Source: Cyanobacteria bacterium P01_A01_bin.123 (GTDB lineage: Bacteria; Cyanobacteriota; Cyanobacteriia; Phormidesmidales; Phormidesmidaceae). Taken from it: a stretch of 10,956 nt of DNA. A program made the position numbers and the translations under genes. Positions 1 to 10,956 of the stretch are shown piece by piece (position 1 is the stretch's first letter; each line of letters opens with the position of its first letter). The stretch covers positions 1 through 10,956 of the forward strand of contig JBCBZT010000105.1 of assembly GCA_039815185.1 (NCBI GenBank), written 5' to 3'. Below the pieces are notes generated by a model. The model was given only the letters and a program-made list of their open reading frames with translations. It did no database searches and had not been told where the DNA came from.

Positions 1-135
1 CCCTCCCTCGCGGGAACGCCCTTGCCTTAAGCTAGTCGTTGTTGTCTCTCGGCTCCTATGATTTTCGAGCATTTGGACACTGGTTCTCCGACAGGGGACT
101 TGCACCCCATTAGTTCACGCCCGTGCCGGGCGTAC
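1..135 (-). mobile_element. 5' end (part of domain I) of a group II intron, IIC-like; continues beyond the left edge of the window
   Basis: The minus strand from 135 reads GTACGCCCGGCACGGGCGTGAACTAATGGGGTGCAAGTCCCC...AACGACTAGCTTAAGGCAAGGGCGTTCCCGCGAGGGAGGG. This parallels the group IIC 5' region as I recall it (GTGYGCCCGGCATGGG...GGGTGAGAGTCCC...AGCCTAACGCAAGGGTGT...GCGA loop). Hairpins: GGGG-TGCAAGT-CCCC (94-108) and TCCC-GCGA-GGGA (4-15). Similarity to TPR-CHAT proteins stops at this point. The boundary could be 137 (GTGTACG) instead of 135. Confidence 0.85.
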
Positions 136-1757
136 ACAAAGGCCCGGGCCCGACCCCGCTCGGCGACGACCAACGCTTCGTCAGGACGATTTTGAGCGAC
201 TAAAATCTGCTGCAATAGGCCGTAGAGGTTACGTTGGGTATCAAATAGTGCAACTTTGAGCGTGTCGCGATCGCCCAAGTTGGCTCGAATCGACTCAAGG
301 ACTTCAATCCCTTGCTGCAGATAAGCCTCGGCGGCAAGTAAATCGCCTTGGAGCAGTGTTGCTATCCCTAGTGCTGCCAAAGCATTGCCTTCGCCATAGC
401 GTTCTTCATCCGCTCGGGAAATATTGAGGCGTTGCTGAAAGGCCGCGATCGCCCGGTCATAGTCACCCAATCGCAGGTAGTTGACACCGATACCTTCTAG
501 GGCAGACCCTTCGTTATAGCGACTGCCAAGGGCTCGATAGAGGGCCAAACTTTGTTCTTGCTGGGCCAACGCAGTGCGATAGTCGCCTTGGCGGGTATGA
601 TACGCCGATAAGCCAATTAGGGCATTGGCTTGACCGTTACGATCCCCCGTTGATTGGGTCATGGCTAGTGCCTCTGCATAAGCAGCCCGCCCGCCCTCTT
701 CATCGTTTAAGGAGTACAGCGCTCCTCCCAAACTTTTGAGCACCTGACCGATGCGATCGCGATCGTCAATCCGCCGCGCGATCGCTAAACTTTGCTGATG
801 GTAATCCACTGCTCGGCGATAGTCCCCAACGAAAATATAAACCTCGCCCAGGGGATACAGCAGTTGGGCTTCATTCGCCGGGGATTGGCCATCCTGTCGC
901 GCAATCGCCAGACTTTGCTGGTAATAATCAATGGCTGGGGCATATTCGTTCAGCCAGTAGTGGTTGAAGCCGATGTTATACAGGGCGCTCCCCTGCCATT
1001 CTGAATCGTCCAAGGCTTGCGCAATCGCCAGGCTAGCCTGATGACGCTCAATGGCTTGGCGATAGTCTCCCAAAATATGCGAGGTATTTCCCATCGAGCT
1101 GAGGATAAAGACTTGCTGGCGTAAATCGTCAGCCCCTTCTGCCATCATTAGCGCTTGCTCATAGTGCATCAGGGCTGTGGTGTAGTCCCTTTGCCAATAG
1201 GCAGTGAATCCGAGGCGGGTCAACACTTCTGCGATCACCACTGGATTGGCTTGGGATTGGGCGATCGCCAGACTGGCTTCAAACGCGGCGATTGCCTCCT
1301 CAAAATCCTCTCGATTGCTGTAACCGACCCCTAACCAGTAGAGCCCTTCTTGTTCAGCTTCAGGGTCGGCGATCGATTGGGCAATCTCAACGCTGTGTTG
1401 AAATGCCGCGATCGCTTGATCCCAATTTTCCAATCGCGTCTCAGCAAACCCAATATGCCTCCACCCGTTCAGCACAGCAGTAAAATCGCCAAGCTGCTCA
1501 TAAATCGCGATCGCCTGCTGCCAAGCTTCCACTGCCAGTGCGAACTGATCCTGCTGAAAGGCAGCATTCCCTTCCAAAACTAGCTGGTTAGCCCTTTGTG
1601 AATTATCTTCTGGGGTCTGGGCCAACGCTAAATAGAAACTGTTGTTGCCTTCAATGAACCACAGCAGCGGTGAGCAGATTGAACTGACGAACGCGATCGC
1701 CAATACACCCACCAGCTTTAGCATTCTCCACCCCAATAATGATTGATTGCGCTCCAT
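136..1757 (-). CDS. TPR-repeat protein, N-terminal part (5' exon) of a probable TPR-CHAT caspase-like protease, interrupted by the intron
   Basis: Roughly 11 TPR-like repeats (e.g. ALYNIGFNHYWLNEYAPAIDYYQQSLAIAR, ALEGIGVNYLRLGDYDRAIAAFQQRLNISR). They are followed by GIEVLESIRANLG..LFDTQ..Y..LQQILVAQNRPDEALVVAERGRARAFV, the usual linker before a CHAT domain in cyanobacteria. The N-terminus is hydrophobic and signal-like, ending ALAQ. AGGAGG lies 9 nt upstream of the ATG at 1757, preferred over TTG 1778. The last 35 aa of the track ORF (to the stop at 27-29) are intron-derived. The CHAT domain itself is not in the window. Confidence 0.85.
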
Positions 1758-7869: not shown

Positions 7870-8061
7870 AGGCGGAACTTGCAGCTAACCGCCCCATCGA
7901 TAAGAATGGAAAGGGGAAACAGAAGACAACTGTCGTATGATTAACCAGGAGCTTTCTAATTCCCCTAGGTTGGTGGATTCAGGCAAAATAGCCTTTTCCT
8001 GATTTGGGCTGACTGTGAGTCCCAAAATCTACGCTAAAAACAAGCAAACTTGAGAGTGATT

Positions 8062-8535
8062 ATGCTGAACCAAGCAATTGCCAAGCTACAAGAAATTTTC
8101 CCTGCCCCTGAGGTTCACGCTCACTGCGATGGCCCCTGTGGTGTATATGATCCCTCTGCTGCCAGAATCACGGCTGAAGCAGTGCTCTCGATGACCAAGA
8201 AAATCCTGGCACTAGAAGCACCTAATGCTAGCGACAAAGCGGCTTATATCGCTTACGAAAATACGCTGTCTCGATACATCGCTATCAAGGAAGAGCAGGC
8301 TCAGAAAACTAAAGACGATCTGCTGATCCTTTGGACGGACTACTTCAAGCCCGTGCACCTTGAGAAGTACCCCGATTTGCACGACACCTTTTGGAAGGCT
8401 GCGAAGCTTTGCTCGGCGTGTAAGGTTGAAGTTAGCGTTGAGCATTCCCAAGAACTGATGGCTGCGGTGCAAAAGATCCACACCATGTTCTGGGCAACCA
8501 AAGAACGTGATGTGGCTTGGTATACCGCTAGCTAG
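8062..8535 (+). CDS. sodN: Nickel superoxide dismutase precursor
   Basis: Ni-hook HCDGPCGVYDP begins at 8122 after a leader ending EVHA; IKEEQA, ILWTDYFKP.HLEKYPDLH, SACK and MFWATK. ATG at 8062 preceded by GAGAG. Confidence 0.98.
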   Translation: MLNQAIAKLQEIFPAPEVHAHCDGPCGVYDPSAARITAEAVLSMTKKILALEAPNASDKAAYIAYENTLSRYIAIKEEQAQKTKDDLLILWTDYFKPVHLEKYPDLHDTFWKAAKLCSACKVEVSVEHSQELMAAVQKIHTMFWATKERDVAWYTAS

Positions 8536-8590
8536 TGAGCTGTCGATTTCCCCTTTGGCGGTTTGCTTGAGGGATAATTTTGAATCTAAT

Positions 8591-8630
8591 GGAGGTAGGG
8601 ATCTAGGTTTAGGTCTCTACCTTTGTTATT
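8591..8630 (+). terminator. Stem-loop after sodN (terminator or 3'-stabilising hairpin)
   Basis: AGGTAGGGATCTA (8593-8605), GGTT loop, TAGGTCTCTACCT (8610-8622): 13 bp including 2 G-U pairs, followed by TTGTTATT. Confidence 0.7.
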
Positions 8631-8672
8631 AATTAGGCTTTGTTATTAATTAGGGCTTTGTTAGTGATTAGG
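8621..8672 (+). repeat. Three tandem 17-nt repeats between sodN and sodX
   Basis: CTTTGTTATTAATTAGG (8621-8637), identical copy (8638-8654), CTTTGTTAGTGATTAGG (8656-8672). Confidence 0.9.
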
Positions 8673-8683
8673 GAGATGGATGG

Positions 8684-9085
8684 ATGAAATGGCAGCTGAG
8701 GCATAAGCACTTGGGGGATTTATTGTTGTTCCTCATCCGCCGTCGCCAGCGATTTCGGATAACCGGGACTTCCATGCTGCCGTTGCTGAAACCAGGCGAA
8801 GAAGTGCTGGTCGCGCCCGTCCAATGGCGGAGAAATCAGCAGGATGGTATCGCCCCCACTGGCCAGTCTTCGGGCATCACCTTAGATACGGGCGATCTGG
8901 TTGTAGCCTGTCACCCCTTCCGACCCAACTTACGACTAATTAAACGGGTGATTGCCGTGCGCGATGACCAGACTTATTTGTTGATGGGGGATAATCCAGA
9001 AGCGGGGGCAAGCACTGACAGCCGCAGCTTTGGCGCAGTCCCTCCTTCCCACATCTTGGGCAAAGTCATCTGTCGATTTCCCTAA
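8684..9085 (+). CDS. sodX: Nickel-type SOD maturation protease (peptidase S26-like)
   Basis: ITGTSMLPLL.PG (catalytic Ser), GDLVVACHP, LIKRV (catalytic Lys), GDNP...STDSRSFG.V; immediately downstream of sodN. Confidence 0.95.
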   Translation: MKWQLRHKHLGDLLLFLIRRRQRFRITGTSMLPLLKPGEEVLVAPVQWRRNQQDGIAPTGQSSGITLDTGDLVVACHPFRPNLRLIKRVIAVRDDQTYLLMGDNPEAGASTDSRSFGAVPPSHILGKVICRFP

Positions 9086-9089
9086 CCCT

Positions 9090-9590
9090 ATGATCCAGTC
9101 TCAATCCCGCCCCCCCGTTGATATTCAACCTGCAACGCCAGCAGACGTGCCGACTTTATTCGCGCTGGTACAAGCCTTAGCGGACTATGAAAAACTAGCC
9201 CATGAAGTGACCGGGACACCCGCAGCCCTGCATCAAAATCTATTTGGCGATCGCCCCTATGCCGAAGCTATTCTGGCCCGCATTGAAGGCGAAGTGGCTG
9301 GGTTTGCCTTGTTTTTCCACAACTTCTCTACATTTTTGATGCAGCCCGGTCTTTATCTAGAGGATCTGTTTGTCCTCCCGGACTTTCGCCGATATGGGGT
9401 CGGCACAGCGTTGCTGACCCACTTAGCCGAGTTGGCCTTAGCGCGGGGATGTGGTCGGTTTGAATGGAGCGTACTGGATTGGAATCAACCGGCGATCGCG
9501 TTTTATCAGCGTATGGGAGCTGAGATTAAGTCGGAATGGCAGGTGTGTCGCGTGAGTGGTGAAGCCTTAACCCAGTTCGGCCAGCATTAA
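9090..9590 (+). CDS. GNAT N-acetyltransferase, spermidine/spermine acetyltransferase (SSAT)-like
   Basis: LADYEKL, GFALFFHNFSTF..PGLYLEDLFV.P.FRRYGVG..LL, GCGRFEWSVLDWNQPAIAFY. ATG at 9090, 4 nt after the sodX stop, preferred over TTG 9030, which lies inside sodX. Confidence 0.92.
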   Translation: MIQSQSRPPVDIQPATPADVPTLFALVQALADYEKLAHEVTGTPAALHQNLFGDRPYAEAILARIEGEVAGFALFFHNFSTFLMQPGLYLEDLFVLPDFRRYGVGTALLTHLAELALARGCGRFEWSVLDWNQPAIAFYQRMGAEIKSEWQVCRVSGEALTQFGQH

Positions 9591-10956
9591 GACAAATTCA
9601 ATGCATCCACATCAATGGTGAGGCTGACCCCTTTAGGGCAGCGATCGCGCAGTTGGGTCAAATCGGGCAGTCGGTCCGCAATCTGTTCAGGATTTTGCGC
9701 TGGCGTTTGCGGGAGCTTGAGCAAAATATGCCAGCGATATCGCTGCGCAACACGCAAATTGGGGGCGGGGGCGGGCCCCAGCAGATCGTAGGTCAACCGT
9801 GAATTCTGATTGAGTAGCTGGGTAAGATCAGCGGCGATCGCAGTGGCGGTTTGCTCCACCCGAGCCGCCTCTAGACCGCTAAAGCGCAACAGCACGATCT
9901 GTCCCCAGGGCGGATAGGCTAACGCCTGTCGCTGCTCCAGTTCTTCAGCCACAAACTTAGCGTAGTCTTGCTGTTTGAGCGCTTCAATGACCGGATGATC
10001 AGGGGTATAAGTTTGCATAATTACCTGCCCTGGGTGATCACCCCGCCCCGCTCGTCCAGCAACTTGAGTCAGCGTTTGATAAGCCCGCTCACTCGCCCAG
10101 TAGTCATTCATGTATAGCAAGCCATCAGCAGCCAAGATGCCCACTACCGTCACTTGGGGTAAGTCCAACCCTTTAGTCAACATTTGGGTGCCCACGAGTA
10201 AATCAGCCTCCCCCCGGGCAAAGCGATCAATCAACGCCCGATGGGCCCCCTTAGTTCGCGTCGTGTCGCTATCAAACCGAATACAGCGCAAATCAGGAAA
10301 CTGGTCTGCCAGCTCATTCACCACCCGTTGAGTGCCGCTACCAAAATGTTTGAGATAGGGGGAGCCACAAGCTGGACAGTGCAACGGCTGCGCTTGACCA
10401 TAGCCACAGTAATGACAGCGTAGCGTCGGCATCGCAGCCGCGTAGGGCTTGTGATGCGACAGCGACACATCACAGTGAGGGCAGTCCATCACATGGCCAC
10501 AGCTACGACAAGACACAAAACTACTGTGCCCCCGCCGATGAATAAACAGCAACCCCTGATTACCCGACGCTTTCATCTCCATCAAAGCAGCACTCAACCG
10601 CCGACTAAAAATCGATCGATTCCCCCCATGCAGCTCCTGCCGCATATCCACCACTTGAATCACAGGCATTGGCCGAGCATTGATCCGATCTGGTAGAGAA
10701 AGGTAGAAATTTTGGACAGCAGCCCCAGCGCTAGGGGATTTTGAATTTTGAACAGCACTCTGTGCCGCTGCGCTAGAGGATTTTGAATTTTGGGGATTGA
10801 TAGCCAGCTTGGCAGCAGATTGCAAATCTATTGCAGTGGGCACACGCCGTGACGCCCCTACAGTATTTCCATCTTCCTGACTCCCCATCTCCCCATCTCC
10901 CCATCTCCCCATCTCCCCATCTCCTCCCTCCCGACTCCAAATCCAACTCTCCAACG
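9587..10956 (-). CDS. priA: Primosomal protein N' (replication restart helicase), 3' part; 5' end outside the window
   Basis: Enters the window at ..LESW (end of the SATPSLESW motif); VVDMR.EL, LFIHRRG; four CxxC pairs (CRSC, CPHC, CHYC, CPAC); GSGTQR, RFDSDTT, VGTQMLTKGLD, QVAGRAGRG, QTY.P.HP, YPP, LGPAPA and IDVD. Confidence 0.97.
   Translation of the reverse strand, partial: LESWIWSREGGDGEMGRWGDGEMGSQEDGNTVGASRRVPTAIDLQSAAKLAINPQNSKSSSAAAQSAVQNSKSPSAGAAVQNFYLSLPDRINARPMPVIQVVDMRQELHGGNRSIFSRRLSAALMEMKASGNQGLLFIHRRGHSSFVSCRSCGHVMDCPHCDVSLSHHKPYAAAMPTLRCHYCGYGQAQPLHCPACGSPYLKHFGSGTQRVVNELADQFPDLRCIRFDSDTTRTKGAHRALIDRFARGEADLLVGTQMLTKGLDLPQVTVVGILAADGLLYMNDYWASERAYQTLTQVAGRAGRGDHPGQVIMQTYTPDHPVIEALKQQDYAKFVAEELEQRQALAYPPWGQIVLLRFSGLEAARVEQTATAIAADLTQLLNQNSRLTYDLLGPAPAPNLRVAQRYRWHILLKLPQTPAQNPEQIADRLPDLTQLRDRCPKGVSLTIDVDALNLS
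10836..10861 (-). repeat. GTAG-type REP-like imperfect palindrome inside priA
   Basis: Minus strand GTAGGGGCGTCACGGCGTGTGCCCAC resembles the cyanobacterial GTAGGGGCG...CGCCCCTAC repeat; translated as VGASRRVP(T). Confidence 0.65.
10881..10924 (+). repeat. Perfect octamer tandem repeat (CTCCCCAT)x5.5 inside priA
   Basis: Five exact copies at 10881-10920 plus CTCC; encodes GDGEMGRWGDGEMG. Confidence 0.97.

Follow-up and report, generated by a model that had tools for sequence, protein, structure and literature searches.

Sense-strand insertion of a group IIC-attC intron in a predicted TPR-CHAT protease gene of a cyanobacterium, probably a recent off-target event

INTRODUCTION

Group IIC-attC introns, the lineage of S.ma.I2, are already well described (PMC3001079, PMC7923331, PMC4424553), and TTGT/T has been given as their target consensus (PMC7923331). 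The terminator-targeting introns B.h.I1 and GsI-IIC (PMC1702495, PMC8919778) are of the same IIC RNA class and share the recognition of a short IBS1 and a stem-loop, to which the choice of the 5' exon has been tied (PMC1702495). According to PMC8919778, class C introns leave coding sequences unbroken. A group II intron within a protein gene is known from Ll.LtrB, located in the ltrB relaxase gene, where splicing is needed for the product and host mRNA is lowered (PMC6003770, PMC7293003). Group II introns are reported to lower host mRNA, and the IIC intron BhI1 was 25% spliced in E. coli (PMC6003770).

The DNA analyzed here, referred to as the window, comprises the first 10,956 bases of contig C103 in the assembly of Cyanobacteria bacterium P01_A01_bin.123. 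Because the window begins at the contig start, the DNA to its left is not on this contig. The original prediction, made from the letters of the window, placed a group IIC-like intron inside a TPR-CHAT protease gene at the left edge.

RESULTS AND DISCUSSION

Structure of the interrupted gene

The minus-strand open reading frame at 1778-27 encodes 583 amino acids with Pfam matches to TPR families only. Gene sequence gives way to intron sequence at window position 135, following the AERGRARAF codons and the first two bases (GT) of Val548, and the frame continues for 35 residues beyond Val548 to a stop codon at 29-27. The original prediction had noted both this frame and its stop, and the three intron segments that it quoted on the minus strand after AERGRARAFV are all present. 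Of the interval that it gave, 1 to 165, positions 1-135 are intron and 136-165 are exon. The window ends inside the intron because the assembly breaks in the repeat. The features of the junction region are as follows.

1 to 135, minus strand: 5' end of a group IIC-attC intron (135 nt, beginning of domain I), truncated where the contig stops; identity of 95% to the corresponding end of a full-length, 1940-nt relative that has an RT/maturase gene
27 to 135, minus strand: read-through tail of 35 residues with its stop codon, both within the intron, the predicted product of unspliced RNA, seen as an open reading frame; tail in none of 120 listed homologues
136 to 139, minus strand: IBS1 (TTGT), the final four bases of the 5' exon; its complement ACAA lies in the EBS1 loop of sister copies on contigs C21 and C123, and the consensus is TTGT/T (PMC7923331)
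136 to 1778, minus strand: 5' exon of the TPR-CHAT protease gene, 547 codons and two bases of Val548, from the open reading frame, domain search, exon join and orthologues
145 to 158, minus strand: small GC hairpin in the minimum-energy fold, its end 9 nt upstream of the insertion point; a candidate for the stem-loop signal of IIC introns, not significant against shuffled sequences
192 to 198, minus (coding) strand: 7-nt stretch that can pair with the bases across the insertion point, a possible attC R-box-like stem; criteria partly post hoc, folding energy no better than shuffles

The true start of the TPR-CHAT gene may be a few codons downstream of 1778. The read-through tail and the stop within the intron are the cause of a false call of an intact 583-aa TPR protein, which an annotation pipeline would make, as had been foreseen. 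No homologue that truly ends in the tail was present among those listed, and 118 of the 120 carry PF12770. Elsewhere in the window, 2162-2503 on the plus strand encodes a 113-aa open reading frame with a signal-like start, repeated "RRENLDK" units and no Pfam match; 8050-9085 on the plus strand encodes a nickel superoxide dismutase followed by its S26-family maturation peptidase, an ordinary arrangement; and 9587-10954 on the minus strand encodes the C-terminal part of the PriA helicase, cut by the other contig end.

The window exon was joined in silico to each of the eight exons that follow an intron 3' end at a contig end. Only the exon on contig C127 gave a 957-aa protein, the other seven joins yielding 551-592 aa. 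CHAT (PF12770) was detected on the C127 exon at 246 bits, and the His818 and Cys870 motifs, which we take to be the CHAT protease dyad, are intact in the rejoined protein. The interrupted TPR-CHAT gene, the restored frame and the His/Cys motifs of the original prediction were therefore all recovered. The continuation predicted as AFV-(E/D)-L was correct in its first residue, since Glu-Arg-Ile follows Ala-Phe-Val, which is close to but not E/D-L. The insertion is about 115 residues before the Pfam CHAT match, which starts at residue about 665, within the conserved helix that follows the TPR array. Neither exon contains a stop or a frameshift, which is compatible with a young insertion and equally with rescue by splicing.

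From its domains, the rejoined gene is predicted to encode a protease with a TPR array and a CHAT domain with His and Cys motifs, the same order as in cyanobacterial TPR-CHAT proteases (PF12770; HetF-related, PMC9457339). HetF itself is described as CHAT, a membrane segment and periplasmic TPRs (PMC9457339), whereas in the family of the window the TPR array precedes CHAT. A search by sequence for a solved structure matching the CHAT half returned none. There are 42 CHAT matches in the genome (∼40 paralogues). Two further TPR-CHAT genes are located within 8 kb downstream of the C127 3' exon (L200:3241-9000).

Intron ends and copy number

The same 135-nt intron 5' end begins at eight places in the genome, each preceded by TTGT, so the junction is not due to chance. 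Seven of these 5' ends are at contig ends and one is within contig C129; five of the seven are identical to that of the window over 135 nt (differences, 0, 0, 0, 0, 0, 1, and 3). Eight contig ends carry one identical intron 3' end, and all eight match RF00029 at 41.2 bits (cut-off, 40). At least nine near-identical copies of the intron are thus present. In run X1, the depth of the intron was roughly 385 compared to 35-44 for the TPR-CHAT gene.

We infer that the first 139 nt of contig C127 are the 3' end (domains V-VI) of the window's copy. The continuity from C103 through the intron to C127 rests on the exon match, because the intron body of this copy is absent from the assembly. The 3' end on C127 folds into a domain V with a CGC triad and a domain VI with a bulged A, followed by a terminal AU (fold z = -4.3; -42.7 kcal/mol for domains V and VI together). 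Rfam gave no match on the window alone because domains V/VI are on other contigs. The intron starts with GUACG, one base off GUGYG, and the same variant is found in the integron-borne plasmid introns L205-L207. The insertion is precise, with the exons rejoining without duplication or loss. T (IBS3) begins the exon after all nine intron 3' ends, including the 3' exon on C127. The complement of IBS1 was seen in the sister copies, the EBS region of the window's own copy being in the unassembled part, and the pairing is that of group IIC: short IBS1-EBS1 and IBS3-EBS3 and no IBS2, with EBS1 supplied by the sister copies.

The 3' end of this copy encodes the maturase C terminus, which is also retained by ORF-less relatives. 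A body or maturase of this intron family was not found in the genome (best RT match 33%, another class), and the intron body had no matches in the metagenome scan. The RNA-family search suggested with the original prediction thus recovered domain V/VI on the 3' ends, while the RT/maturase ORF of this intron was missing from the assembly. A simple sigma-70 scan of 1-135 (135 nt only) detected no outward promoter.

ORF-less copies were also observed. The IIC copy at C129:7811-8501 on the minus strand (L004) is complete at 691 nt and lacks an ORF; its domain V/VI is different, and it is located beside a CHAT-bearing gene on the opposite strand. ORF-less copies of 707-785 nt are present in L046, L049, L050, L053, L061, and L096. 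ORF-less introns of this sort are described as rare in bacteria (PMC4424553).

Lineage of the intron

The intron 5' end was matched in 31 of 173 genomes of the order, its own genome included. The closest full-length relative, L047, is 1940 nt long and is 95% and 94% identical at its two ends. Its RT/maturase (445 aa; TIGR04416, 394 bits) has RVT_1 and GIIM only, with no endonuclease, and its best match among solved structures is the GsI-IIC RT. The middle of the window's copy is unassembled, and the L047 maturase stands in for it as a proxy in the lineage placement. In a tree of 18 rows, from which candidates without a full RT frame were dropped and in which S.ma.I2 itself is absent, L047 fell in an 11-row clade (support, 100/99) with introns beside or between integron cassettes on plasmids (L207, L208). 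The proteins of terminator-type IIC introns fell outside this attC clade.

The element is a IIC-attC intron. It has in common with the S.ma.I2 lineage (PMC3001079, PMC7923331) the TTGT/T target, the type of 5' end, a short domain V with the CGC triad, an endonuclease-less RT/maturase in the closest full-length relative, a maturase clade of integron-borne plasmid introns, and the attC-like sites of most sister copies. The terminator-targeting introns differ both in falling outside the attC clade and in their site, since no terminator-like site is present at the window's insertion point. The IIC intron 5' end proposed at the window edge is therefore placed more precisely, in the IIC-attC lineage.

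At the surveyed sites of relatives, 75 of 139 had a TTGT end, nearly all of them attC-like palindromes by eye. The genome encodes an intact integron integrase (C36). Contigs C14 and C5 also carry broken integrase pieces, at distances of about 1 kb and 3 kb from the intron 3' ends there. In L055, a spacing of 101 nt separates two intron 5' ends, the second intron having inserted into the first in a twintron-like arrangement. In L153, around position 2600, an intron of the IIC-attC family is located inside a CRISPR repeat of a Desulfobacterium metagenome-assembled genome and splits the array.

Insertion site

Described IIC-attC copies are located in the attC bottom strand, opposite to cassette transcription, or after terminators, whereas the window's copy is in chromosomal coding sequence in sense orientation and is therefore transcribed with the host gene. 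It is not in a true attC bottom strand but in coding sequence with only an R-box-like stem. The genome's intron 5' flanks were attC-like in six of eight cases, judged by eye and with no attC model. The non-attC position of the window's copy identifies its location as ectopic and does not set it apart from the lineage.

The insertion site has the sequence TTGT/T, the bases spanning it match the attC core GTTRRRY, and a 7-bp pairing with 192-198 is possible. The GTTRRRY fit and the pairing occur together at only 18 of 18,841 genomic TTGT/T sites, a count that depends on criteria partly chosen after the site was seen. The stem can be drawn, with an energy equal to that of shuffled sequences (z, -0.09 and +2.2), and no canonical L box was seen at the insertion site. 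A test for a perfect 6-bp R box is a weak discriminator, because most true attC-like sites were not picked out by it.

The ERGRARAF motif was considered as a hot spot of the family and rejected: TTGT/T was found at the homologous codon in none of 19 paralogues, the junction pattern (TPR-CHAT with the intron) occurred in none of 400 other genomes (1 of 401, its own genome), and it was not detected in the metagenome scan. Among the matches listed in relatives, a sense frame of at least 140 codons was present upstream at 3 of 98 sites, two of them attC-like by eye and one a CRISPR array. At sites of relatives with both exons visible, a frame continued across in 0 of 10; antisense insertions cannot be scored from one side.

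Intron-free alleles

The TPR-CHAT gene was found without the intron in close relatives, as the original prediction had proposed to compare. In run X6, from another study, a 4221-nt contig matches 136-1770 with 85 differences (∼95% identity), and where it runs on past 136 it agrees with the C127 exon at 29 of 30 bases. This intron-free contig therefore confirms the pairing of C103 with C127 and demonstrates an intron-free allele in a close strain. Run X6 also has a contig with the intron 5' end behind a different flank. The intron-free orthologue L035, from the same genus, is colinear over 890 aa at 64% identity with upstream synteny, and the orthologue P0002 is 75% identical over 940 aa with no gaps and has the same residues after the junction. 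In run X8, a contig from exactly 136 with 226 further letters is probably intron free and was left out of the allele count. Among the matches listed from run X1, there was no loose end at 136, in contigs that drop rare variants and with a junction contig that has only 24 letters on the intron side. Run X3 had no cover at about 200-438. Neither X1 nor X3 entered the evidence on the intron-free allele.

A second gene interrupted in antisense

Of 56 possible exon joins, three had long frames on both sides. Joining contigs C106 and C11 rebuilt a 542-aa flavin amine oxidase (PF01593) on the strand opposite to the intron (L197:138-1145, L198:1785-2399), the only other credible interrupted gene among the 56 joins. 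The join of C11 with C121 was rejected in favor of C11 with C106, in which both halves match PF01593. No intact close orthologue of the amine oxidase was found in five genomes (best matches, 29-31%), and the R-box mimic is absent at this site. Splicing of the amine oxidase mRNA cannot remove the intron because the intron is antisense to the gene. Two interrupted genes, one in each orientation, are as expected from a burst of mobility with off-target landings.

Origin and consequences of the insertion

The best explanation, to which we give a probability of roughly 0.8, is a recent off-target insertion from a mobility burst that knocked down or knocked out one of ∼40 CHAT paralogues and was tolerated rather than selected. 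In this reading, a group IIC-attC retroelement spread recently through the genome to at least nine copies, with the intron RNA presumably reverse-splicing into single-stranded DNA at TTGT/T beside a stem-loop, guided by EBS1 and EBS3 as in the known mechanism. Most copies landed in attC-like sites and two off target in genes. The window's copy entered the TPR-CHAT coding strand at a TTGT/T that in sequence also mimics an attC R box, a mimicry that may have had a causal role.

With its sense orientation and intact ends, the copy could in principle be removed by splicing, with the 957-aa protease as the product; the frame for it is in place, and maturase from this copy or a sister may allow partial splicing. 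Judging from sequence, splicing of the TPR-CHAT intron at some level is rather probable. Unspliced RNA would yield the TPR-only 583-aa product, and we infer that the intron lowers expression of the protease. The net effect would be that the cell loses, in part or entirely, one CHAT paralogue out of about 40, a loss presumably tolerated through the others; losing one CHAT gene is likely to be cheap because the genome has 42 CHAT matches. Ll.LtrB is comparable as a group II intron in a protein gene (PMC6003770, PMC7293003), and the need for splicing and the lowered mRNA described for it would apply to the TPR-CHAT gene by analogy. It differs in its class, IIA, and in homing to a conserved mobile-element site, whereas the present case is a single event at the level of a strain, in a chromosomal gene that is redundant.

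The original prediction left a choice between a recent knockout and a splicing-dependent gate on the protease. That the host retains the intron so that the protease depends on splicing, for example under stress, would be in keeping with the sense orientation, the intact ends (including the domain V/VI fold), the in-frame exons and the intact dyad, and condition-sensitive splicing of Ll.LtrB (PMC7293003) and the exon-fusing C.te.I1 (PMC4024640) offer precedents. However, the insertion is missing from the 95%-identical strain and from orthologues, the window copy is identical to mobile sister copies, the antisense sister insertion indicates that genes are struck regardless of spliceability, the insertion did not recur in 400 other genomes, and there was no sign of selection for it. 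An evolved gate is therefore very unlikely, and the recent insertion is favored. Efficient splicing, with the intron as a near-neutral passenger and full protease at a near-normal level, would also leave the exons intact, and 25 of the 33 listed differences from the X6 strain are at third codon positions, which indicates that purifying selection acted during most of the period after the two strains separated. All of it may have preceded the insertion, and IIC splicing measured in vivo was low and lowered mRNA (PMC6003770), so that this outcome is unlikely too.

A split protein, composed of the TPR-only chain and a TPR-less CHAT chain initiated at a GTG inside intron domain VI, is suggested by a GGAGG 8 nt before the GTG, which is in frame with the 3' exon (C127 position 117; L011:104-119), and by the report that the CHAT part of HetF is active on its own and can complement a HetF deletion (PMC9457339). 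Yet the GTG is within the stable domain VI stem, and since every intron copy carries the motif, a GTG in frame with the 3' exon has a 1-in-3 chance; such a protein is quite improbable. An assembly artefact, with a repeat glued to the gene, comes to mind since the junction is at a contig end in an assembly of 133 contigs with 6% contamination, but the sequence breaks off on one contig and picks up on another at an identical base, nothing is duplicated or lost, and the position has the target consensus of the family, so that an artefact is hardly credible. A further possibility, improbable in our estimate, is that the IIC-attC intron was captured by a cryptic attC-like fold and is now a true mRNA intron controlling the protease, possibly with a TPR-less protease from domain VI. 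Full-length protease would then require splicing and a maturase that about nine copies share, and the locus would show in nature how a class C intron, of a class thought to avoid genes, can join gene control.

Implications

The sense, in-frame insertion in a chromosomal gene is an atypical site for a known kind of intron. No IIC-attC intron inside a protein gene was apparent by title or abstract opening in a limited library, which is not proof of absence. In contrast to the statement in PMC8919778, two copies interrupt genes in this genome, one of them in an orientation that could be spliced and the other not. The locus also holds a lesson for annotation: when a collapsed repeat divides a gene, what is annotated is an apparently intact TPR protein of 583 aa and an orphan CHAT fragment. 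The probably recent, off-target insertion provides a natural setting in which to ask whether a IIC-attC intron is spliced out of an mRNA in the host where it resides, and whether an R-box-like fold suffices to attract it.
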